From assembly GCF_056746865.1 (NCBI RefSeq), contig NZ_CM163382.1: a DNA stretch of 64,000 nucleotides; one strand, written 5' to 3'. Shown here piece by piece: positions 7,350 through 23,554 of the stretch. The notes below the pieces were generated by a model. The model saw nothing but the letters and a program-made list of their open reading frames with translations. It ran no database searches and was not told where the DNA came from. The position numbers and the translations under genes were made by a program. Numbering within the stretch: position 1 is the first letter of the stretch; the number at the start of each line of letters is the position of its first letter.

Positions 7350-7802
7350 ATGAAATTTCTGGAATGTGCTGTCCGGGATGTGATTTATGGGACCAATGTC
7401 CGTATTGTCAAACCGGTCAACATTTATGAATGTGAACTCAGGGACAACGTGTTTGTCGGCCCCTTCGTTGAGATACAGAAAGGCTGTGTCATTGGTAGTG
7501 GAAGTCGAATACAGTCGCATACGTTTATTTGTGAGAACGTAACACTGGGAGAGAACTGCTTCATTGGTCATAACGTGACGTTCGCCAACGATCTGTTTCG
7601 TTCAGGAGCACCAGATCCGTCACCGGATAACTGGATCAGCATTATCCTGGGGGATTCGGTTACTGTTGGCAGTGGAGCCATTATTCTGTCTCCGTATATA
7701 TGCAGCGGAGCTGTTATCGGTGCGGGGGCTGTTGTAGTAAAACCGATTGAGAACAAAGGCATTTATGCAGGAAACCCGGCAAGACTGATCAGAATATTAT
7801 GA
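7350..7802 (+). CDS. hexapeptide-repeat (left-handed beta-helix) acyl/acetyltransferase
   Basis: ATG at 7350 in ORF 7320..7802; repeated [LIV]-G-x-x-x-x-I hexapeptide pattern (…VIGSGSRI…VTLGENCFIGHNVTF…ILGDSVTVGSGAIIL…VIGAGAVVV…). Confidence 0.7.
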   Translation: MKFLECAVRDVIYGTNVRIVKPVNIYECELRDNVFVGPFVEIQKGCVIGSGSRIQSHTFICENVTLGENCFIGHNVTFANDLFRSGAPDPSPDNWISIILGDSVTVGSGAIILSPYICSGAVIGAGAVVVKPIENKGIYAGNPARLIRIL

Positions 7803-8966: not shown

Positions 8967-11033
<2,067 letters not shown>

Positions 11034-12497: not shown

Positions 12498-12710
12498 TCA
12501 GGTGACATATTTCCAGACGGAAGCCGGCACGCGATCGTAAAGTTTGTTCATTGTCAGTTCTGCCAGCCGGTTGTCAACGGCAGAGTTAAAGGCTTCCAGC
12601 TCCGCAGGGGTAAGTTTATAACGTGTGTGGGAAATCACTTTTTCCAGCGTCTCCCGGGATGAACAACGACGGAACTGATACAGCCAGTCTTCTTTGGTTT
12701 TAACTTCCAT
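12498..12710 (-). CDS. small hypothetical protein
   Basis: 70-aa ORF with coding-like composition (MEVKTKEDWLYQFRRCSSRETLEKVISHTRYKLTPAELEAF…); function unknown. Confidence 0.4.
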   Translation of the reverse strand: MEVKTKEDWLYQFRRCSSRETLEKVISHTRYKLTPAELEAFNSAVDNRLAELTMNKLYDRVPASVWKYVT

Positions 12711-13434
12711 TAGCCTCTCATTACTTTATGCTGCGGTTAACAGGATGCTGTCAGCATACCGCACCAGCCTGGCATTCTGGTACCCTCCCCAAACTCATTA
12801 CTCCCGTGCCACCACTTAACCGGTCTCTCAGACTGTCACTCACCAGGTCGGATACGTTTACCGCTCAGACGGATGCTTAATGCACTCTGTTCACGTGTGT
12901 TGCAGGTACGTTTTATATACGCAGGTTATACGCCAGCTATCAGAGATAGCCCTGTGGGTACAACGCAATCTGCTGCTACTGCGTTCTCATGCCCACTGAT
13001 CGCACTCACAGTGTTTATTTCACATATATGAACTCATGTATTTGATCTCATGTGTTTGATCTCTCTTATATATTTATAATACCAATCAGACAGTCTTATC
13101 CCACCAGTGATAACTGTCGCCTGCCCACAGGTCACAGGCTGATATACCACAACCGCCTTCAAAAACAACTCTGCAATTATCAGAACGCTAGTTTTCCCCT
13201 TGTCTCACGAAAGTCCTCCCTCCTTTATCGCGTGCGCGTGCGGAAGCATCGTTTCGCAACAACCACCCGACATACCGGTACAGCTCAGCCACCGCAATCC
13301 CCCCGTTTATCTCCTGACGGTCACATTCCCGATTATTTTTTACGTTTCTCCCCGGTTGTTATGCCGGTGAAGGTGGTGCGTTGTTTTCATCACCAACGCC
13401 GGTTGAGATTAACAACATCCGGAGGAACATTCTC

Positions 13435-13641
13435 ATGACCCCCCCAGTTTCACTGATGGATGACCAGATGGTCGACATGGCGTTTATCACTCAACTGACT
13501 GGCCTGACCGATAAGTGGTTTTACAAACTCATCAGGGATGGGGCCTTTCCGGCCCCCATCAAGCTGGGCCGCAGTTCCCGCTGGCTGAAAAGTGAAGTGG
13601 AAGCCTGGCTGCAGGCGCGTATTGCACAGTCCCGTCCGTAA
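13435..13641 (+). CDS. alpA: AlpA-family prophage transcriptional regulator
   Basis: ATG at 13435 within ORF 13381..13641; …MAFITQLTGLTDKWFYKLIRDGAFPAPIKLGRSSRWLKSEVEAWL… is the characteristic AlpA/MerR-like HTH. Confidence 0.7.
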   Translation: MTPPVSLMDDQMVDMAFITQLTGLTDKWFYKLIRDGAFPAPIKLGRSSRWLKSEVEAWLQARIAQSRP

Positions 13642-13721
13642 TTTCTGACCGTTATCCGTTCACCCGCAGCAGACGTAATCCCCGGCCTGCCGGCGGCATT
13701 CTGCTGCCTGTTATATCCCCC

Positions 13722-14339
13722 GTGAGGAATATGAAAATGAAACAACAGTATCAGACCCGTTACGAACTGCTCCACGAAAGCTACCAGAAATGGCTGACCG
13801 GCTTCACCCGGCACGCCGTATCCTGGGGCGTGTGTCATCCGAATATCTACTACTTCCATAATCTGACGCCCGGGTGGGTGTCATTCAATGGTGAAAAACC
13901 GGAGATTGCCATCGTACCCCAGAGCCTGCACCGGCTGATTTATGGCCCTGACAAACGGGCCACGCCGCCCCTGGATGATGATCTGATAGTGAATTTATGC
14001 ACCAGTGAACATCTGCTGGTTCATCATCCGATGCTGGAAGGCATTCTCCTGTCTGAATGTGAACGTCTGAGGCAGCGTTCTCTGGCAAATAAACTGATTA
14101 GCCTCTTCCGTCAGTTTGGTGGCACGGAGTTGCGCCTCAAACTGGTCTGGCTTTGCTGGCTTGATTTAATGACCGGAAACAGCCTTGAAGACTGGAAAGA
14201 GAACCTGAAACGGAAATCAGAAAAAGAGCTGGAGGAATGGATCATCAACCGTCAGAGGCAGAGCGCAGCACTGACGGATCTGATGGATCAGTACGTGCTC
14301 CTGGCATACCGCACAACGGTTGACGATAGCCGCAACTGA
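13722..14339 (+). CDS. hypothetical protein
   Basis: 205-aa ORF immediately downstream of alpA; no family recognised. Confidence 0.45.
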   Translation: MRNMKMKQQYQTRYELLHESYQKWLTGFTRHAVSWGVCHPNIYYFHNLTPGWVSFNGEKPEIAIVPQSLHRLIYGPDKRATPPLDDDLIVNLCTSEHLLVHHPMLEGILLSECERLRQRSLANKLISLFRQFGGTELRLKLVWLCWLDLMTGNSLEDWKENLKRKSEKELEEWIINRQRQSAALTDLMDQYVLLAYRTTVDDSRN

Positions 14340-15541
14340 TGCCGGTTGCTTCCGGAAGGTGTGACAAAATACGGAAATGATGATGCTCCCGGCCCTGCAT
14401 GCTCACCTGCAGAGCGTGTTCGTCGTCATCATACTGAGCCATGACGGGCGTCTTAAGGGCATCCTGTCATTGCTGAGCAGGCAACACCACCAGAGGAGCC
14501 ACGGACAGGGATGTTCTTTACAGCCCGATACACGCCAGGTTCTCAGCAGACTGAATGTGCAGGTGCGGTTATTCACCAGAAATGGCATGCTGCGGTACAT
14601 ACCCATCCTGGTGACAATATGTACGTGGCGACAGCGATCCCGGCACTGTGGAAGAGACTCACTCAGCCTGCAGGATATTCTTTCCGGCATCCGGGAATGT
14701 CCGCCTGAATGCAAACAGGATGATATTTGAATCCGTAATACTGTTCTTTCATCATAAATAATTTATGCAGATACAGTTAACCGTTACAGTAGCAGGTTTG
14801 TTTTACCGGGAAATAATATCCGTCAGACTGATGCCGGAACATATCTGAAACACGTTATGATGTTTTGTTATCAGAAATGTTGTATATTCTTATCCGTGGC
14901 GACAGTTTAATGCCCTCTGGTATCACCTTGGATAATGCATATCCTGCGATGATTCGTTATATTTACGGGACACGCCTCTTTTCATTGTGCTCCTTTTCAG
15001 ACTTCATTTTCCGTAAGTGTTCCCCGGCATAAAGGAGGTACCTTTCTGGCGTTTATAACTCTCTTTATCGGTGACGCCGGTAATACAGGGAATACCACAC
15101 CGACAAACGAGGTATTAACAGACGATATTTCAGTGTCCATAATTTTTCTGTCCGGTTAAATAACGTCAGTCTGCTGCCCTCTGACTGTAATCATCAAAGC
15201 CGGAATGCATACCGGGTTACAACGTAAAAAAAGTGATGCTGGCCCCCGGTGCAGCTGGCGGGCGAAACATGTTTACCTTTCAATACCCCCTGTCTGCAGT
15301 CTCCACTCTTCCATCCTCTTAAGCTACGTCGGCCACATGAATGCACTTCCATGATAACAGGTATTCCTGTCAGCATAACGAAGCCGGTTACCTTCCCTTC
15401 CTCCTGCACTTCCTGTCATAATGACTATACAGCGCGCAGATTGCCTTTTTATTGACCACCTTAATATACCATTATAAACTTCTTTTTATCATGTTATTAT
15501 CACCTTGTTATGTTTAATTTTTAAGCAACCGGAGAAAGGGG

Positions 15542-16459
15542 ATGGTTCAGAAAATTTTGTCGGATAAGGTTATGAATGAAAGAACAAATGCGTATTACTC
15601 TTATTATCTTGGAGAGCGTAATATCTCCGTACTGCCCCTTAATGTTTATGATCCCCCGGAACGTTTTATCGCTTACATAAAAAAAAACAGAGAAAATCTG
15701 AACATCACACTTTCAGATTTTGAACTTGAACAAATAATTTCTGGTATGCGTCTGAAGGCACTGGCCTTCCTGGTCCCCCTGGAAAAAATATCCTGGATCG
15801 CGGGCAGTGAACGCGCATGCTTATTTTCCTGGTATCTGTTGATGCAGTTTATCCAGAATAACAGGGCAAAAATAAGTGCAGACTTGCTTCAAAAGAATAA
15901 ACTGTATCTTAAAGAAGAGTATTTAGAAGGGAATGCCTTCCCGTCGGACTCATCGACACAGTTCAGACAAATACTCAGAGTTCTCGATATTCTTTCTGAT
16001 AAGAATTTGCGGGATGAGTGGATAATCCAGACCAAAGACAGATGGATGCGGGCATTTAAATCAAAGAGCCCTTTCAGTTACCTCCTCCCGGAGAACGAAC
16101 ATGAATGCATATGGACATGGAATTATTTAAAGGAAAAAAATATTGCACTGGACAACCTGGCCAGTTTTCCTGGTTCTGCTGATATTTACCACGCAATTCA
16201 CCTTTCATTTGACATATGGGTTACCCATCCATCTGCCTCACCTGACGATATAAAAAATTTCAGGAACAGTTTCAATAAGGCCAAGGCACAGCGCAAGTAC
16301 AAAAAAATGCAGGAAGATAAAGTCAATGTACAGTTTTTTCTTGACGCAGAAACCAGGGCGCAGCTCAAAGAATTATCGAGGGCCAGAAGACTCAGTACTG
16401 GCGAAATGCTGCATGACCTGATTGTTGAAGAGTATAAAAGGTACCGACATTCCAGATAA
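15542..16459 (+). CDS. hypothetical protein, AT-rich gene with ribbon-helix-helix-like C-terminus
   Basis: 305-aa ORF with markedly lower GC than its neighbours; C-terminal …VQFFLDAETRAQLKELSRARRLSTGEMLHDLIVEEYKRY fits the beta-strand/helix/helix pattern of CopG/Arc-type RHH domains. Confidence 0.45.
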   Translation: MVQKILSDKVMNERTNAYYSYYLGERNISVLPLNVYDPPERFIAYIKKNRENLNITLSDFELEQIISGMRLKALAFLVPLEKISWIAGSERACLFSWYLLMQFIQNNRAKISADLLQKNKLYLKEEYLEGNAFPSDSSTQFRQILRVLDILSDKNLRDEWIIQTKDRWMRAFKSKSPFSYLLPENEHECIWTWNYLKEKNIALDNLASFPGSADIYHAIHLSFDIWVTHPSASPDDIKNFRNSFNKAKAQRKYKKMQEDKVNVQFFLDAETRAQLKELSRARRLSTGEMLHDLIVEEYKRYRHSR

Positions 16460-16542
16460 TTTCAGACATATATTATCTCCGTGAATCCCCCGCCACCTTT
16501 CCGGTGTGTGGGGTTTTGTCTTTTTTCACCGGGAATACATGT

Positions 16543-17415
16543 ATGAATCCGTCTGATGCCATTGAGGCAATTGAAAAACCGCTCTCCTCCCTGCCTTACT
16601 CACTTTCCCGTCACATCCTGGAACATCTGCGTAAACTCACCAGTCACGAACCCGTGATTGGCATTATGGGTAAAAGCGGGGCCGGTAAATCCTCACTCTG
16701 TAATACACTGTTTCAGGGGGAGGTCACCCCGGTCAGTGATGTTCACGCCGGCACCCGGGAAGTGCAGCGCTTCCGTCTGAGTGGCCATGGTCACAGCATG
16801 GTTATCACTGACCTGCCCGGGGTGGGCGAGAGTCGTGACAGGGATGCAGAGTATGAAGCCCTGTACCGTGACATTCTGCCTGAACTGGACCTGGTACTGT
16901 GGCTGATTAAAGCCGATGACCGGGCCCTGTCTGTGGATGAGTATTTCTGGCGACACATCCTGCACCGGGGACATCAGCAGGTGCTGTTTGTGGTGACGCA
17001 GGCCGACAAAACGGAGCCCTGCCATGAATGGGATATGGCCGGCATTCAGCCTTCTCCCGCACAGGCACAGAACATTCGCGAAAAAACGGAGGCGGTATTC
17101 CGTCTGTTCCGGCCCGTACATCCGGTTGTTGCCGTATCGGCCCGCACCGGCTGGGAACTGGATACGCTGGTCAGTGCGCTCATGACAGCGCTTCCCGACC
17201 ATGCCGCCAGTCCCCTGATGACCCGCCTGCAGGACGAGCTGCGCACGGAATCTGTCCGGGGTCAGGCCCGTGAACAGTTTACCGGTGCGGTGGACCGGAT
17301 ATTTGACACGGCGGAGAGCGTCTGTGTTGCCTCTGTTGCCCGTACGGTTCTGCGTGCCGTCCGTGACACGGTGGTCTCTGTTGCCCGCGCTGTATGGAAC
17401 TGGATTTTCTTCTGA
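16543..17415 (+). CDS. yeeP: YeeP/YfjP/YkfA-family GTPase
   Basis: ATG at 16543 in ORF 16504..17415; P-loop GIMGKSGAGKSS and downstream DLPGVGES motif; located just upstream of flu as yeeP is in CP4-44. Confidence 0.75.
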   Translation: MNPSDAIEAIEKPLSSLPYSLSRHILEHLRKLTSHEPVIGIMGKSGAGKSSLCNTLFQGEVTPVSDVHAGTREVQRFRLSGHGHSMVITDLPGVGESRDRDAEYEALYRDILPELDLVLWLIKADDRALSVDEYFWRHILHRGHQQVLFVVTQADKTEPCHEWDMAGIQPSPAQAQNIREKTEAVFRLFRPVHPVVAVSARTGWELDTLVSALMTALPDHAASPLMTRLQDELRTESVRGQAREQFTGAVDRIFDTAESVCVASVARTVLRAVRDTVVSVARAVWNWIFF

Positions 17416-17524
17416 ACAGTCTGCCAGGGAAATGCCTGATAACATTACGTTAACCAACTGAAAACATGACACAACCCCCTCATACTCCTCCTGTTTCTCT
17501 TGCGTGACTGCCTTGCTGTTAATA

Positions 17525-17575
17525 GAATATAACGATCGATAAAACAGATATCGATCGTTACTATCGATCGTTTAT
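17525..17575 (+). promoter_or_regulatory. flu (agn43) phase-variation switch: three GATC Dam sites within the OxyR-binding region
   Basis: CGATCGATAAAACAGATATCGATCGTTACTATCGATCG with GATC at 17534, 17553 and 17566, about 220 bp upstream of the flu start. Confidence 0.7.
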
Positions 17576-17721
17576 AGTGGTTAATGGTCTGCGAAAAGGC
17601 AGCTGAATCTCTTCATCATGCAGAACGGAATTGCACACAACGGACTGATACTTCTCTGGCGGATGAGAGAGGGGAAGCATTTATGTCCGGGAAAAACCAC
17701 TTTATCTGACCATGCTGTTTT

Positions 17722-17761
17722 GTACCTGCCGGTATCCACTTTTGTGGGTACCGGCTTTTTT
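17722..17761 (+). other. stem-loop plus T-run in the flu 5' leader (terminator-like; may close an IsrC-like small RNA or act as a leader structure)
   Basis: GTACCTGCCGGTATCCAC-TTTT-GTGGGTACCGGC followed by TTTTTT, ending about 25 nt before the flu ATG. Confidence 0.35.
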
Positions 17762-17786
17762 ATTCACCCTCTGTAAGGAAAAGCTG

Positions 17787-18515
17787 ATGAAACGACATCT
17801 GAACACCAGCTACAGGCTGGTATGGAATCACATTACGGGTACCCTGGTGGTGGCCTCCGAACTGGCCCGCTCACGGGGAAAACGCGCCGGTGTGGCGATT
17901 GCGCTGTCTCTTGCTGCTGTCACATCAGTCCCGGCACTGGCTGCTGACACGGTTGTACAGGCGGGAGAAACCGTGAGCGGCGGAACACTGACAAATCATG
18001 ACAACCAGATTGTATCCGGAACAGCTGATGGCGTGACTGTCAGTACCGGGCTTGAGCTGGGGCCGGACAGTGACGAAAACACCGGCGGGCAATGGATAAA
18101 AGCGGGTGGCACAGGCAGAAACACCACTGTCACCGCAAATGGTCGTCAGATTGTGCAGGCAGGAGGAACTGCCAGTGATACGGTTATTCGTGATGGCGGA
18201 GGGCAGAGCCTTAACGGACTGGCGGTGAACACCACGCTGGATAACAGAGGTGAGCAGTGGGTACACGGGGGAGGGAAAGCTGCCGGTACAATTATTAACC
18301 AGGATGGTTACCAGACCATAAAACATGGCGGACTGGCAACCGGAACCATCGTCAACACCGGTGCAGAAGGTGGTCCGGAGTCTGAAAATGTGTCCAGCGG
18401 TCAGATGGTCGGAGGGACGGCTGAATCCACCACCATCAACAAAAATGGCCGGCAGGTTATCTGGTCTTCGGGGATGGCACGGGACACCCTCATTTACGCC
18501 GGTGGTGACCAGACT
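17787..18515 (+). pseudogene. flu: antigen 43 (Ag43) autotransporter, 5' portion interrupted by an IS
   Basis: MKRHLNTSYRLVWNHITGTLVVASELARSRGKRAGVAIALSLAAVTSVPALAADTVVQ… matches the Ag43 signal peptide and passenger domain; identity ends at …YAGGDQT where IS sequence begins. Confidence 0.85.
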
Positions 18516-18716
18516 GCAAAATGGCATCTGAATCGATCGCAGTTTGGCATTCGAATCGATCATGATTTGGCATCCATCTCCGATCACAGTTTGGCATCAC
18601 AATCGATCACGATTTGGCATGCTTCCGATCATTGATTGGCATCCTGCCAGTCACTCCGGGAATTAACTCTTTTCACCACAGTCTCCATTGCCGTGTTTAA
18701 ACCAGTGGAGACGTCA

Positions 18717-20282
18717 ATGTCCAGAAAGAGAAAATCCAGGAGCACTATGGAAACCTGTTTTAAGATTCTTCAGCTCAAGTTCGACAAGAAGCTGACTAAC
18801 CGTTGTATCGGACTGACGTTACACATCAGCGCCTCAACCGTTTTTGAGGTTCTTGCCCGCTTCAAAGCCTCTTCTCTGTCATGGCCATTACCTGCTGATA
18901 TATCCCATGACACGCTGGAGAAACTCATTTTTCCGCCCAAAGACACCTTTGCATCAGAGCTTGTAATGCCTGACATGTTGTACCTCGATACGGAAATGAG
19001 AAAACCAGGTGTGACGCGGCAACTGTTGTGGATGGAATACAAGGCACAGGCGGGTAACAAAGCGATGGGATACTCGCACTTCTGCCGTTGCTACCGGGAG
19101 TGGAAAAAAACGCGACGTCTCTCCATGCGCCAGGAGCATCGTGCCGGCGAAAAGCTTTTTATCGACTTCTGTGGTCCTACGGTTCCTGTTATTAATCCGG
19201 ACACCGGTGAGATACGCCGCGTGGCAATCTTCGTGGCCGTAATGGGGGCGTCCAACTATACCTACGTTGAAGCGTGCGAAGGTCAGGACATGATGTCATG
19301 GTTAAATGCCCACAGCCGTTGCCTGACCTTCCTGGGCGGCGTACCGAAGCTGCTCATCCCCGATAACCTCAGAAGCGCAGTGAAAAAGGCCGATCGATAT
19401 GAGCCTGTCATCAACGACAGTTATCAGGCACTGGCTGAGCACTATGGCACGGTTATCATCCCGGCCCGACCACGCAAACCTAAAGATAAACCAAAAGCAG
19501 AAAACGGCGTCCTCATCGTCGAACGATGGCTTCTTGCCCGCATCCGTAATGAAACCTTCCACACGCTCAGGGCGCTGAATGCGCGCCTTAGGGAGTTACT
19601 GACAGACATGAATAACCGGCCAATGAAGGGGTACGGCAATCAAACCCGTGCAGAACGCTTCCGCATACTGGATGCGCCAGCACTCTCTCCGCTGCCTCTG
19701 GCACCTTATGAATACACGGAATACAAAGCTGTGAAGGTTGGCCCTGACTACCACGTTGAATATGCCCGTCACTGGTACTCCGTTCCACACGAACTGGTCG
19801 GTCAGCGTCTGTCACTGAAGGCGGGGCAGTCGGTGGTACAGCTCTGGCACAAGGGGCAGTGTGTGGCGCAACATCCGCGCAGCACACATGAATATAAACA
19901 CACAACCAATCCGCTTCACATGCCAGAGCGCCACCGGCAGCACGGGACATGGACACCGGAACGCCTGATCGAGCAGGGAAAACGTACGGGCCCGTCCACA
20001 GGCCGGGTGGTTGAATCCATGCTGAAGGCAAAACCCCATCCGGAACTGGCTTATCGTGCAGTTCTGGGGCTGCTGGCACTTCAGAAAAAATACGGCCCGG
20101 AACGGCTGGAAAAGGCCTGTTACGTTGCCCTGCACTATAACGCCCCTGACAGACGCTTTATCGACAATCTGCTGCGTCACCATCGGGAGAACCTGGAGCT
20201 TCCATTATCCCGCCAGGGCGAACAACATCCGGCATATGCTTCAGAGCATGAAAACCTGCGTGGTCCGGGCTACTACCACTGA
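18717..20282 (+). CDS. istA: IS21-family transposase IstA
   Basis: Large ORF 18636..20282 with integrase-core features (…LFIDFCGPTVPV…); the start codon is uncertain (18636, 18717 or 18747). Confidence 0.75.
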   Translation: MSRKRKSRSTMETCFKILQLKFDKKLTNRCIGLTLHISASTVFEVLARFKASSLSWPLPADISHDTLEKLIFPPKDTFASELVMPDMLYLDTEMRKPGVTRQLLWMEYKAQAGNKAMGYSHFCRCYREWKKTRRLSMRQEHRAGEKLFIDFCGPTVPVINPDTGEIRRVAIFVAVMGASNYTYVEACEGQDMMSWLNAHSRCLTFLGGVPKLLIPDNLRSAVKKADRYEPVINDSYQALAEHYGTVIIPARPRKPKDKPKAENGVLIVERWLLARIRNETFHTLRALNARLRELLTDMNNRPMKGYGNQTRAERFRILDAPALSPLPLAPYEYTEYKAVKVGPDYHVEYARHWYSVPHELVGQRLSLKAGQSVVQLWHKGQCVAQHPRSTHEYKHTTNPLHMPERHRQHGTWTPERLIEQGKRTGPSTGRVVESMLKAKPHPELAYRAVLGLLALQKKYGPERLEKACYVALHYNAPDRRFIDNLLRHHRENLELPLSRQGEQHPAYASEHENLRGPGYYH

Positions 20283-20298
20283 CAGAAGGAACAACAGT

Positions 20299-21054
20299 AT
20301 GAGTGATAACCTGTTAAACAAACTGACCCAACTGAAACTCCCGGCGATGGCCGGGAGCCTGATACGGCAGCGGGAAACGCCTCAGACCTACGACGAACTG
20401 TCGTTCGAGGAAAGGCTGACGCTGCTGGTTGATGACGAGCTTCTGAGCAGGGAAAACAGCCGTGTGGCACGGTTGAGAAAAAATGCCGGCCTGAAATACC
20501 AGGCAACACCGGAAGGGCTGCGCTATCCGGCCTCAAGAGGTCTGCGGGCTGAACAGATGAGAGAACTGCTGAACGGCCACTACATAACCCACAGGAAAAA
20601 CCTGCTGATAACCGGTCCGACAGGATGTGGCAAGAGCTGGATAGCCAATGCGCTGGGCGAACAGGCATGTCGACAGAAACACAGCGTCCGGTACTGTAGA
20701 ACCGGGCGATTACTGGAACAACTGGCTCAGGGACGTGTTGATGGCAGCTGGCTGAAATATCTGAAACAGTTGCAAAAAATACAGGTTCTAATCCTGGACG
20801 ATCTGGGGCTGGAACAGTTAAGTAACGCCCAGTGTAATGACCTTCTGGAGCTCATAGAGGATCGTTACGGACAAAGCAGCACGATAGTGGTAAGCCAGTT
20901 CCCGGTAGATAAATGGCATGGTCTGATGGAGAACCCAACAACAGCAGATGCCATCCTGGACAGACTGGTACATAACTCACACCGGGTGGTCCTTCAGGGA
21001 GAGTCACTGAGGAAAAATCCCCCGGTAGTGGAAAGCAGCGAAAAAACGCGTTAA
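20299..21054 (+). CDS. istB: IS21-family helper ATPase IstB
   Basis: 251 aa from the ATG at 20299; Walker A GPTGCGKSW and Walker B VLILDDLG. Confidence 0.85.
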   Translation: MSDNLLNKLTQLKLPAMAGSLIRQRETPQTYDELSFEERLTLLVDDELLSRENSRVARLRKNAGLKYQATPEGLRYPASRGLRAEQMRELLNGHYITHRKNLLITGPTGCGKSWIANALGEQACRQKHSVRYCRTGRLLEQLAQGRVDGSWLKYLKQLQKIQVLILDDLGLEQLSNAQCNDLLELIEDRYGQSSTIVVSQFPVDKWHGLMENPTTADAILDRLVHNSHRVVLQGESLRKNPPVVESSEKTR

Positions 21055-21144
21055 AAAGCGGTAGAAAAAGTTAAGTTCCCGGTTGATCGAATGGATGCGA
21101 ATCGCTGATCGGACTTCGATGCCAATCCGTGATCGAATAGAGCG

Positions 21145-23554
21145 GAATACGCACCAGACGGTACACGGAGAGGCACATAACACCCGACTGGAGGGGGGTA
21201 ACCAGTATGTACACAACGGTGGCACGGCAACAGAGACGCTGATAAACCGTGATGGCTGGCAGATGATTAAGGAAGGAGGAACTGCCGCGCATACCACCAT
21301 CAACCAGAAAGGAAAGCTGCAGGTGAATGCCGGCGGTAAAGCGTCTGATGTCACCCAGAACACGGGCGGTGCACTGGTTACCAGTACAGCTGCAACCGTC
21401 ACCGGCACAAACCGCCTGGGAGCATTCTCCGTTGTGGCGGGTAAGGCTGATAATGTCGTACTGGAAAATGGCGGACGTCTGGATGTGCTGAGCGGACACA
21501 CAGCCACTAATACCCGTGTGGATGATGGCGGAACGCTGGATGTCCGCAACGGTGGTGCCGCCACCACCGTATCCATGGGGAATGGCGGTGTACTGCTGGC
21601 CGATTCCGGTGCCGCTGTCAGTGGTACCCGGAGCGACGGAACGGCATTCCATATCGGAGGCGGTCAGGCGGATGCCCTGATGCTGGAAAAAGGCAGTTCA
21701 TTCACGCTGAACGCCGGTGATACGGCCACGGATACCACGGTAAATGGCGGATTGTTCACTGCCAGAGGGGGCTCGCTGGCGGGCACCACCACGCTGAATA
21801 ACGGTGCCACGCTTATCCTTTCCGGGAAAACGGTAAATAACGATACCCTGACCATCCGTGAAGGTGATGCACTCCTGCAGGGAGGCGCTCTTACCGGTAA
21901 CGGCAGGGTGGAAAAATCAGGAAGTGGCACACTCACTGTCAGCAACACCACACTCACCCAGAAAACCGTCAACCTGAATGAAGGCACGCTGACGCTGAAC
22001 AACAGTACCGTCACCACGGATGTCATCGCTCAGCGCGGCACGGCCCTGAAGCTGACCGGCAGCACAGTGCTGAACGGTGCCATTGACCCCACGAATGTCA
22101 TCCTGACATCCGGTGCCACCTGGAATATCCCCGATAACGCCACGGTTCAGTCGGTGGTGGATGACCTCAGCCATGCCGGACAGATTCATTTCACCTCCGC
22201 CCGCACAGGGAAGTTCGTTCCGACAACTCTGCAGGTGAAAAACCTGAACGGGCAGAATGGCACCATCAGCCTGCGTGTACGCCCGGATATGGCGCAGAAC
22301 AATGCTGACAGACTGGTCATTGACGGTGGCAGGGCAACCGGAAAAACCATCCTGAATCTGGTGAACGCCGGCAACAGTGGTACGGGGCTGGCGACCACCG
22401 GTAAGGGTATTCAGGTGGTTGAGGCCATTAACGGTGCCACCACGGAGGAAGGGGCTTTTGTCCAGGGGAATATGTTGCAGGCCGGGGCCTTTAACTACAC
22501 CCTCAACCGGGACAGTGATGAGAGCTGGTATCTGCGCAGTGAAGAACGTTATCGTGCTGAAGTCCCCCTGTACGCCTCCATGCTGACACAGGCAATGGAC
22601 TATGACCGGATTCTGGCAGGCTCCCGCAGCCATCAGACCGGTGTAAACGGTGAAAATAACAGCGTCCGTCTCAGCATTCAGGGCGGCCATCTCGGTCACG
22701 ATAACAACGGCGGTATTGCCCGTGGGGCCACGCCGGAAAGCAGCGGCAGCTATGGCTTCGTCCGTCTGGAGAGTGACCTGCTCAGAACAGAGGTCGCCGG
22801 TATGTCACTGACGACAGGAGTGTATGGTGCTGCAGGCCATTCTTCCGTTGATGTTAAGGATGATGACGGCTCCCGCGCCGGCACGGTCCGGGATGATGCC
22901 GGCAGCCTGGGCGGATATATGAACCTGACACACACCTCCTCCGGCCTGTGGGCTGACATTGTGGCACAGGGAACCCGCCACAGTATGAAAGCGTCATCGG
23001 GCAATAACGACTTCCGCGCACGGGGCTGGGGCTGGCTGGGCTCACTGGAAACCGGTCTGCCCTTCAGTATCACTGACAACCTGATGCTGGAGCCACGGCT
23101 GCAGTACACCTGGCAGGGGCTTTCGCTGGATGACGGTAAGGACAACGCCGGTTATGTGAAGTTCGGGCATGGCAGTGCACAACATGTGCGTGCCGGTTTC
23201 CGTCTGGGCAGCCACAACGATATGACCTTTGGTGAAGGCACCTCATCCCGTGCCCCCCTGCGTGACAGTGCAAAACACAGTGTGCGTGAACTGCCGGTGA
23301 ACTGGTGGGTACAGCCTTCCGTTATCCGCACCTTCAGCTCCCGGGGTGATATGCGTGTGGGGACCTCCACCGCAGGCAGCGGGATGACGTTCTCACCCTC
23401 ACAGAATGGCACTTCACTGGATCTGCAGGCAGGACTGGAAGCCCGTGTCCGGGAAAATATCACCCTGGGCGTTCAGGCCGGTTATGCCCACAGCGTCAGC
23501 GGCAGCAGCGCTGAAGGCTATAACGGTCAGGCCACGCTGAATGTGACCTTCTGA
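21145..23554 (+). pseudogene. flu: antigen 43 (Ag43) autotransporter, 3' portion (rest of passenger domain plus beta-barrel)
   Basis: Reading frame resumes with …HQTVHGEAHNTRLEGGNQYVHNGGTATE… and continues to the canonical autotransporter C-terminus …GYNGQATLNVTF. Confidence 0.85.

Follow-up and report, generated by a model that had tools for sequence, protein, structure and literature searches.

The stretch considered here is a window of 64,000 nucleotides from contig NZ_CM163382.1 (RefSeq assembly GCF_056746865.1). The subject is the part of it (positions 13,722 to 17,415) in which two uncharacterised genes, called A and B, lie between the regulator gene alpA and a YeeP-type GTPase gene. 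An initial annotation, made from the letters of the DNA, had taken A and B for a two-gene cargo in a variable slot for defence or addiction genes. It was found, instead, that the regions of A and B are two unrelated pieces of a CP4-type island. B belongs to a widespread and highly diverse protein family and, with a probability of roughly 0.55, is an autoregulated, site-specific DNA-binding regulator of the island, of the immunity type, whose gene, operator, promoter and terminator would together make up a self-contained cassette. In related islands, anti-phage systems of many kinds occupy the space that follows B; in this window it is empty.

Genes A and B as separate parts of the island

In the list of open reading frames (ORFs), gene A spans 13722..14339 on the + strand and encodes 205 aa from a GTG; RefSeq starts it at the ATG at 13737, which gives a protein of 200 aa (WP_000813436.1). 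Gene B (15542..16459, + strand) has an ATG start and encodes 305 aa (WP_001536286.1). Both are labelled ‘hypothetical protein’ in RefSeq. The features of the locus are as follows.

13435..13641 (longest ORF from 13381), + strand: alpA, an AlpA/excisionase-type helix-turn-helix regulator (TIGR01764, E 3e-4; RefSeq ‘helix-turn-helix/AlpA family transcriptional regulator’)
13737..14339, + strand: gene A, a conserved island backbone protein of 200 aa, 3' of alpA
14340..14662, + strand: 3' flank of gene A and left border of the variable cassette, matching the sister islands L100 and L101 at 86-94%; the homology to L100 stops at 14662
14663..16447, + strand: variable cassette, made up of the B-linked upstream region and gene B; unrelated sequence in L100
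14663..15457, no strand: unannotated region of 795 bp, co-inherited with the B allele
15542..16096, + strand: predicted all-helical N-terminal domain of gene B, residues 1-185
16097..16459, + strand: predicted C-terminal MatP-like core of gene B, residues ~186-305, with the stop codon at 16457-16459
16325-16441, + strand: putative ribbon-helix-helix (RHH) of gene B, residues ~262-300
16543..17415 (ORF from 16504), + strand: YeeP/YfjP/YkfA-type GTPase of 290 aa, with which the conserved rightward arm opens

Both the ORF list and RefSeq place the two genes between alpA and the yeeP-like GTPase, as the initial annotation had it. Its description of gene B as low in GC also agrees with the measured fraction of 0.41, compared with 0.52 for gene A and 0.58 for the GTPase. 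The 1.2-kb spacer between A and B, which it had called AT-rich, is so only in relation to the flanking genes, as its GC of 0.46 equals the window mean (0.469).

For comparison, 80 GTPase loci from different Enterobacterales species were fetched and searched with hidden Markov models, and 75 of them had sufficient upstream sequence. A homologue of gene A is found 3' of alpA in every relative. B is present in 29 of the 75 loci; alpA lies upstream in 27 of these 29 and A in 20, always on the strand opposite to B. Homologues of B immediately precede the GTPase gene, in like orientation, in Serratia (68% identity), in an E. coli variant (52%), in Edwardsiella (50%) and in Morganella/Yersinia (~24%), and these loci have alpA and then an A homologue (61%, 31% and 52%) on the opposite strand, directed away from B. 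Similarly, in blastn comparisons, positions 13419-14206 of the window match Serratia in reverse, and 15458-17062 are collinear with it. Because alpA and A are always on the strand opposite to B in the loci of other species, the co-directional order alpA-A-B of the window is, on this comparison, an E. coli-specific inversion.

The block is common in E. coli. Positions 13300-17500 of the window are 100% identical to several E. coli chromosomes, and at least 80% of the block is carried by 1285 of 5426 complete E. coli genomes, which is about a quarter. Gene B was found in 1408 E. coli genomes, always at an identity of at least 95%, and in 1349 of these 1408 carriers it is also full-length.

The alleles of B, on the other hand, are extremely divergent from one locus to another. 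The median pairwise identity between loci is just 21% for B, as against 59% for the GTPase, 54% for A and 69% for alpA. A role of B as a co-evolving partner of the GTPase, A or alpA was considered and rejected, the Mantel rho values being 0.04, 0.03 and -0.02, respectively. In E. coli FDAARGOS_1302 (L100), A is 96% and the GTPase 99% identical to the window, whereas its B-family gene, of 290 aa, reaches only ~26% over 130 residues. Between the window and L100, blastn found homology at 12498-14662 (92.7%) and at 16448-18458 (91%), and none between. As the DNA homology stops at 14662 and resumes at 16448, positions 14663-16447 are, by this alignment, a swapped cassette. The first 795 bp of it (14663-15457) travel with the B allele in 1409 E. 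coli genomes at an identity of at least 95%; the ORFs in this region gave no match to NCBIfam, and the search for RNAs no match to Rfam above chance. This region is not present at the B loci of Serratia and Edwardsiella.

It was also considered whether the 1.2-kb spacer between A and B is a decayed Rep/YagK gene, and this was rejected, as tblastn with seven Rep proteins found nothing. In the sister islands, remnants of ATP-binding/AAA ATPase genes, annotated as pseudogenes, lie between A and the B-family gene (L100:7637-8016 and L101:7481-7615). They point to another variable site, with cargo that has since decayed. No recognisable ATPase remnant was seen in the A-B interval of the window.

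Gene A, with 96% identity between islands that differ in B, is by these comparisons a conserved backbone gene and not cargo; in the proposed model it would be co-transcribed with alpA. A toxin-antitoxin or RnlAB-like pair consists of adjacent, co-oriented and co-inherited genes, and A and B do not form such a pair. Beyond the generic RHH signal, neither protein matched a toxin or antitoxin family in Pfam, NCBIfam or PADLOC. That A and B nevertheless work as a two-gene system is extremely improbable, and the comparative data, as far as sequences can speak, already contradict it. The two are same-strand neighbours here and in ~1285 E. coli genomes, which is what such a system would look like. 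They are, however, 1.2 kb apart; A is on the opposite strand, beside alpA, in 20 of 20 loci of other species; the identities of A and B are uncorrelated (rho 0.03); L100 keeps A at 96% yet holds an unrelated B allele; and distant islands carry B without A. The two-gene cargo of the initial annotation is therefore to be given up in favour of a backbone gene next to a recurrent family of probable DNA-binding proteins.

Predicted fold and candidate operators of gene B

Searched against 1.84 billion proteins, a profile built from close homologues of B finds 272 representative clusters at E<=1e-3, the members of which are mostly ~290-330 aa long and are matched over their full length. Throughout the gammaproteobacteria the family keeps its length of ~300 aa, and certain Trp, Asp and RHH positions in it do not vary. 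In AFDB50, the neighbours of B belong to Enterobacterales, Vibrionaceae, Moraxellaceae, Oceanospirillales and other groups; none of them is characterised, although a few carry the label ‘CopG family regulator’. No homologue of B was found in phage genomes. YfjH of CP4-57, which has the same size and lies in the intA-alpA position, was examined as a possible homologue and rejected (hhalign probability 0.5%, BLASTP not significant). Fragments of B bear the name Ybl124 in UniProt, and the literature search returned no paper that mentions it.

Neither A nor B has a significant match in Pfam, NCBIfam, PADLOC or the PDB sequences, in keeping with the initial annotation, which had recognised neither protein. 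When B is searched alone, PF01402 is matched at residues 264-299 with an i-E of 0.3, and the Arc-like PHROG 582 with an E of 0.041. The family profile, compared with PDB sequences, finds the RHH regulator SvtR (2kel) at residues 248-293 with an E of 0.0047, and MatP with an E of 0.04. In a Pfam scan member by member, RepB-RCR_reg is found in 20 of 71 family members, with E<=1e-3 for three, and RHH_1 in 5 of 71. Thus, the RHH signals from four libraries meet at residues ~245-300, and the RHH-like C-terminal region that had been proposed for B is real, weak as it is for the single protein and convincing at the level of the family.

The comparison of the B family with MatP extends this region towards the N-terminus. 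Against the single MatP sequence, hhalign gave a probability of 67%; against an alignment of three MatP sequences, it gave 84.7% (E 6.7e-6) over 102 columns, pairing residues 187-302 of B with 9-131 of MatP, the span that comprises the four-helix bundle and the RHH. The MatP profile is a shallow one of three sequences, as the search for MatP homologues gave only near-identical sequences. The AlphaFold2 single-chain model of B is confident, with a predicted local distance difference test (pLDDT) score of 80.9. Most likely, then, B consists of an N-terminal helical domain of ~185 aa and a MatP-like DNA-binding core, that is, a four-helix bundle with an RHH, and on these profile comparisons it would be a new, unnamed variant of the RHH/MatP-type DNA-binding proteins. 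No known relative was found for the N-terminal domain (residues 1-185), and no enzymatic or toxin fold for the protein. The literature search did not return any description of MatP-like proteins on mobile elements.

The DNA in front of B is conserved more than the protein would suggest. About 90 nt 5' of B are conserved between orthologues that share just 50-68% protein identity, and this block, which is shared with Serratia, includes the predicted promoter. An element, CACCTTRWTAT, occurs in it twice as direct repeats, 44-45 nt apart, and is kept in Serratia (L002, L033) and in the E. coli variant (L007). In the window, the following elements were located, and the two operator-like copies bracket the predicted promoter.

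15452-15457 (TTGACC) and 15475-15480 (TAAACT), + strand: predicted sigma-70-type promoter of B with a 17-nt spacer, from a consensus scan (9/12 matches)
15456-15467, + strand: operator-like upstream repeat CCACCTTAATAT, overlapping the predicted -35 element
15499-15511, + strand: operator-like element ATCACCTTGTTAT, one mismatch from the palindrome ATCACNNNGTGAT, 43 nt 5' of the B start codon

The 13-bp palindrome ATCACNNNGTGAT was counted in 35 non-redundant upstream regions of B. A perfect copy lies 10-65 nt 5' of the start codon in 5 of the 35, and a copy with at most one mismatch in 8 of the 35, the expected number being 0.45. In all the fetched sequence (1.38 Mb), ten perfect copies occur, and five of them are those upstream of B. 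It was further observed that the motif changes along with the β-strand of the RHH. Proteins with the strand xLN[TS][YF]x go with the motif ACTACGTAGT(GAT), those with LNVxIS or LVTMIS go with ATCAC-N2-3-GTGAT, and those with NVQF[FY]LD, the class to which B of the window belongs, go with TATCACCTTRTTAT. Among the computational arguments that B may bind these sites through its β-ribbon, this covariation of three classes, seen in ~15 independent lineages, is the strongest. In an island of Yersinia similis (L021, ~7650-7720), three tandem iteron-like repeats of 11 bp, TTTTACTGTGT, lie ~135-160 nt 5' of B, in the divergent control region.

The position of B in the islands is also recurrent. Of the 75 loci, 24 have a B-family gene immediately beside the GTPase and five have it 1-6.6 kb upstream; in the other 46, none is found within 8 kb. 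In small distant islands (from a marine metagenome and three others), the integrase lies on one side of B and a divergent alpA/Rep module on the other. The arm that B heads on a Klebsiella plasmid copy consists of DUF905, DUF932, antirestriction, RadC and YeeU/CbtA genes and has no GTPase.

The defence hotspot, the GTPase leader and the surrounding island

The content upstream of the GTPase is widely diverse among the 75 loci. Large unrelated genes fill the space where B is lacking and also, at five loci, the interval from B to the GTPase. PADLOC gave strong matches in 16 of 25 sampled upstream regions; the other nine, whose large genes have no strong match, may harbour unknown systems. The systems matched are listed below with their loci.

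Type III restriction-modification: L016, L068
Gabija: L019, L031, L022, L036
Septu: L018
Mokosh: L043
Lamassu: L048
IetA-like ATPase: L077
Type IIG restriction-modification: L035
DUF262/HEC-06-like genes: L055
CBASS: L065
Type I restriction-modification: L072
PDC-S06: L095
ATPase: L066

With its conserved flanks, mutually unrelated content and enrichment in defence genes, the slot is, from this survey, a defence hotspot. Three loci (L018, L022 and L036) carry one subfamily of B followed by different defence systems and, because they differ at that point after the same B subfamily, the insertion point for defence genes lies between B and the GTPase leader. Seven loci (L089, L093, L025, L063, L052, L020 and L028) have large genes, of up to 1276 aa, in the hotspot with no PADLOC match; such genes may be candidates for undescribed defence systems. 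The literature search found no description of this internal hotspot. Its flanks, the B gene on the left and the leader box of the GTPase on the right, can be used for finding new anti-phage systems.

The initial annotation had likened this position to that in CP4-57, and it is indeed so that in K-12 rnlA-rnlB lies directly 5' of yfjP, with abpA/abpB slightly further upstream. Its idea of a variable slot for defence cargo is borne out by the other loci and fails for this window, in which the hotspot is empty: the B stop codon (ending at 16459) directly precedes the leader box (16463). According to PADLOC and NCBIfam, the cassette contains no defence system, only B and the 795 bp without recognisable genes. 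Nor could B itself be recognised as a toxin, an antitoxin or a defence protein in profile searches; in PADLOC-DB v2.0, neither A nor B had a match to any family at E<=1.

On the right, the hotspot is bounded by a leader that precedes every GTPase gene studied.

16463..16476, + strand: leader box CAGACATATATTAT (family consensus CAGAYAKATATYAT), promoter -10-like, right border of the variable slot
16477..16542, + strand: predicted structured leader, with an outer helix (16477-16485 with 16525-16533), a GC-rich hairpin (16488-16513) and a U-tract (16514-16526)

The box CAGAYAKATATYAT, 77-92 nt 5' of the ATG, occurs exactly once in each of the 86 GTPase loci, whether B is present or not. In the window, the leader folds with -19.4 kcal/mol (z -3.15). 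The analysis of the leader rests on per-sequence folding and on a covariance-model alignment, since RNAalifold on MAFFT alignments gave no consensus because the hairpin variants were misaligned. When 84 distinct leaders were folded one by one, the median z was -3.4 and the outer helix was formed in 72 of them; the strand corresponding to 16525-16533 includes the Shine-Dalgarno sequence in most loci. The inner hairpin is far more variable, with 72 different sequences among the 84 leaders and several unrelated stem families. A covariance model made from 20 class-1 leaders matches only the 5' ends of GTPase genes, at 40 loci; with default filters it did not recover class-2 (yfjP-type) leaders. 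In its alignment, 86% of the cells are paired, compared with 32-61% in slid controls. Compensatory changes, which support the structure, were observed in 11 of 18 pairs, a number reached by 1 of 500 shuffles. The alignment was fitted to the model, and this biases it towards the structure. The leader has no match in Rfam.

The leader is probably the terminator of B and, at the same time, an attenuator of the GTPase arm that sequesters the Shine-Dalgarno sequence. The entire rightward arm, including the genes for Ag43, the antirestriction protein and CbtA/CbeA, is probably under its control. The leader is also present in CP4-57 of K-12 (L015:14623-14710) and at every GTPase locus from L002 to L100. 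A second copy of the box, CAGATATATATCAT, was seen at L015:22457, near the ypjI pseudogene and far from yfjP. In Kluyvera georgiana (L059, 6996-7110), the leader hairpin is duplicated 3' of B and is accompanied by the beginning of a GTPase-like ORF (MKNSD...); ~1 kb of inserted sequence separates these from the real box and GTPase.

The region as a whole is a CP4-type integrative island, as is seen from int, alpA, a Gp2-like Rep, the GTPase, DUF932, antirestriction, RadC and CbtA/CbeA genes. In E. coli 2016C-3878 (L001), it sits in an island at tRNA-Phe, in which the order is int, YagK/YfjJ, zinc-ribbon genes, a Gp2-family Rep, hha, alpA, A and B, and then the GTPase, agn43, DUF932, antirestriction, radC and cbeA/cbtA. 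Insertion sequences (ISs) also occur in the window. An IS21-type element at 18636-21054 (long istA-like ORF 18636-20282; istB-like ORF with its end at 21054) divides the gene of the Ag43 autotransporter into the parts 17712-18635 and 21083-23554; the gene is intact in 2016C-3878 (L001:16488-19610). An IS3-family element at 9440-10653, with overlapping orfA/orfB and an rve-type transposase, lies between two ‘putative zinc ribbon protein’ genes (8967-9455 and 10623-11033) that adjoin each other in L001. Between the GTPase and the Ag43 gene, at 17532-17768, there is a match to the Rfam IS102 RNA, an isrC-type small RNA (71 bits, E 9e-11).

Possible role of gene B and comparison with known systems

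In E. coli and other Enterobacterales, few accessory elements are as common as the CP4-type islands (CP4-57, CP4-44, CP4-6 and their pathogenicity-island relatives). The present analysis assigns a probable regulator and candidate operators to hypothetical proteins in about a quarter of E. coli genomes. In the regulator model, a dimer of B would bind the repeated or palindromic elements around its own promoter (15456-15467 and 15499-15511) and would act as an autoregulated regulator at the junction of the two arms of the island. We infer the binding at these candidate sites, the autoregulation and the regulatory targets. With moderate confidence, B is read as an immunity-type or master repressor because of its fixed position, its private operator and its extreme allelic diversity. 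As in the cI/Stl-like class, it is placed at a divergent control region near int, alpA and rep, and has hypervariable alleles with what appear to be cognate operators.

A bolder and doubtful extension of this model is that the B proteins are an undescribed class of hypervariable sensor-repressors, derived from MatP, which sort the CP4-type islands of gammaproteobacteria into ‘immunity groups’. The RHH/MatP core would then silence the island via allele-specific palindromic operators, and the diversified N-terminal domain would sense a protein of a helper phage or plasmid and so bring about induction, as in Stl of the staphylococcal pathogenicity islands (SaPIs). The attenuator leader, in turn, would gate the arm of the GTPase, antirestriction, RadC and toxin genes.

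Several observations weigh against the regulator model. The extreme allelic diversity of B would suit an exclusion or defence determinant equally. All the RHH and MatP matches of the window protein, taken alone, fall below the family thresholds, and the AlphaFold2 monomer shows the putative β-strand (residues 261-265, pLDDT <50) as a low-confidence helix. The site in front of the window's own B is an imperfect palindrome, and the motif count over the whole window, 6 against 2.3 expected, is not significant. The rightward arm does not need B, as 46 of the 75 GTPase loci have none within 8 kb. Lastly, truncated variants of B exist in some E. coli strains.

The last of these would suit a decaying remnant that no longer functions in E. 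coli. The databases contain many truncated variants and the island is a cryptic, IS-ridden element, and yet this explanation is very improbable: 1349 of the 1408 carriers have B in full length with an identity of at least 95%, the family is kept at ~300 aa with its invariant Trp, Asp and RHH positions, and the predicted promoter, operator and terminator are conserved as well. It is also quite unlikely that B, alone or with the GTPase, is a novel anti-phage or addiction module in which the RHH is an autoregulatory or antitoxin-like part and the N-terminal domain is the effector or sensor; this is the idea of the initial annotation, narrowed to B. RHH domains are frequent in antitoxins, which counts towards such a module. 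B, moreover, occupies a slot that elsewhere holds defence systems, has a low GC of 0.41, is extremely diverse beside conserved flanks and adjoins the GTPase in 24 of the 75 loci. However, it has no PADLOC, Pfam or NCBIfam match and no enzymatic or toxin fold was found; it stays put when defence systems insert beside it (Septu in L018; Gabija in L022 and L036); distant islands have it next to the integrase with no GTPase, and the plasmid copy also has it without the GTPase; and a predicted terminator separates it from the GTPase.

Another unlikely alternative would make B a DNA-organising, partition-like or origin-binding protein of the excised island, in the manner of MatP, ParG or omega, whose target would be a centromere- or origin-like site and which would not chiefly be a transcription factor. 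The top analogue of B in both structure and sequence, MatP, organises DNA; Rep proteins of the Gp2/YagK type are encoded on the divergent arm; some relatives, such as L021, have iteron-like tandem repeats 5' of B; and the N-terminal domain could mediate higher-order assembly. As against this, just one or two sites are found, and these lie on B's own promoter, no ParA-type partner gene is seen in the examined loci, the C-terminal coiled coil that MatP requires for bridging is missing from B, and the window has no matS-like site. An autoregulated regulator of the island is the role that we prefer for B, and it is in this light that the known systems may be compared with it.

The macrodomain Ter protein MatP of E. 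coli (b0956; PF06303 and PF17414) resembles B in the four-helix bundle and RHH predicted for the C-terminal ~120 residues, and the motifs ‘C-x-W-x-W-x-Y’ and ‘A-x-x-Q/R-K-K/R’ occur in both. The candidate targets of B are 13-bp palindromes of a 5-3-5 layout, and matS (GTGACRNYGTCAC), which MatP recognises in the Ter macrodomain, has this layout too. Unlike MatP, B has an extra N-terminal domain of ~185 aa and lacks the C-terminal coiled coil by which MatP tetramerises and contacts ZapB, as it ends at residue 305 after helix B of the RHH and the alignment stops at residue 131 of the 150 in MatP. MatP is encoded by a single-copy chromosomal housekeeping gene, whereas B occurs on mobile islands and plasmids in many divergent alleles. 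The candidate sites of B also differ from matS in sequence and sit on its own promoter; matS-like sites (GTGACRNYGTCAC) were sought in the window with at most one mismatch, and none was found.

The small RHH repressors (CopG/RepB-RCR_reg of rolling-circle plasmids, Arc/Mnt and SvtR) match the same segment of B, all of them below threshold. Similar to the autoregulated members of this group, B has operator-like repeats over its own promoter and lies near a Rep-encoding module. It is, however, six to seven times larger than they are, and its RHH is C-terminal, behind two helical domains. With the repressors of the lambda cI type and SaPI Stl, the analogy is a functional one only, consisting in the fixed position, the divergent alleles and an own type of operator. 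Stl and cI use helix-turn-helix domains, and there is no relationship of sequence or fold between them and B.

RnlA-RnlB and AbpA-AbpB of CP4-57 occupy the same slot, 5' of the homologous GTPase yfjP, and have no similarity to A or B. They are true cargo, whereas B is a recurrent resident gene beside the insertion point. Few papers that name yeeP, yfjP and ykfA together were found in the literature search, and none of them is a functional study of these GTPases. Surveys of E. coli defence islands map integration hotspots and not this internal slot (PMC10121019). In the P2/P4 defence hotspots, conserved flanks surround mutually unrelated anti-phage systems (PMC9122126). A 2025 study in PNAS described Pseudomonas islands at the tmRNA gene with intY, alpA, a Gp2-like protein, RadC and defence cargo, along with their transduction by jumbo phages (PMC12595487); these islands share the core of alpA, Gp2-like Rep and RadC with the type described here (PMC12595487). 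The present hotspot differs from both the P2/P4 hotspots and the tmRNA islands in its flanks, which are a B-family gene on the left and the GTPase leader on the right.

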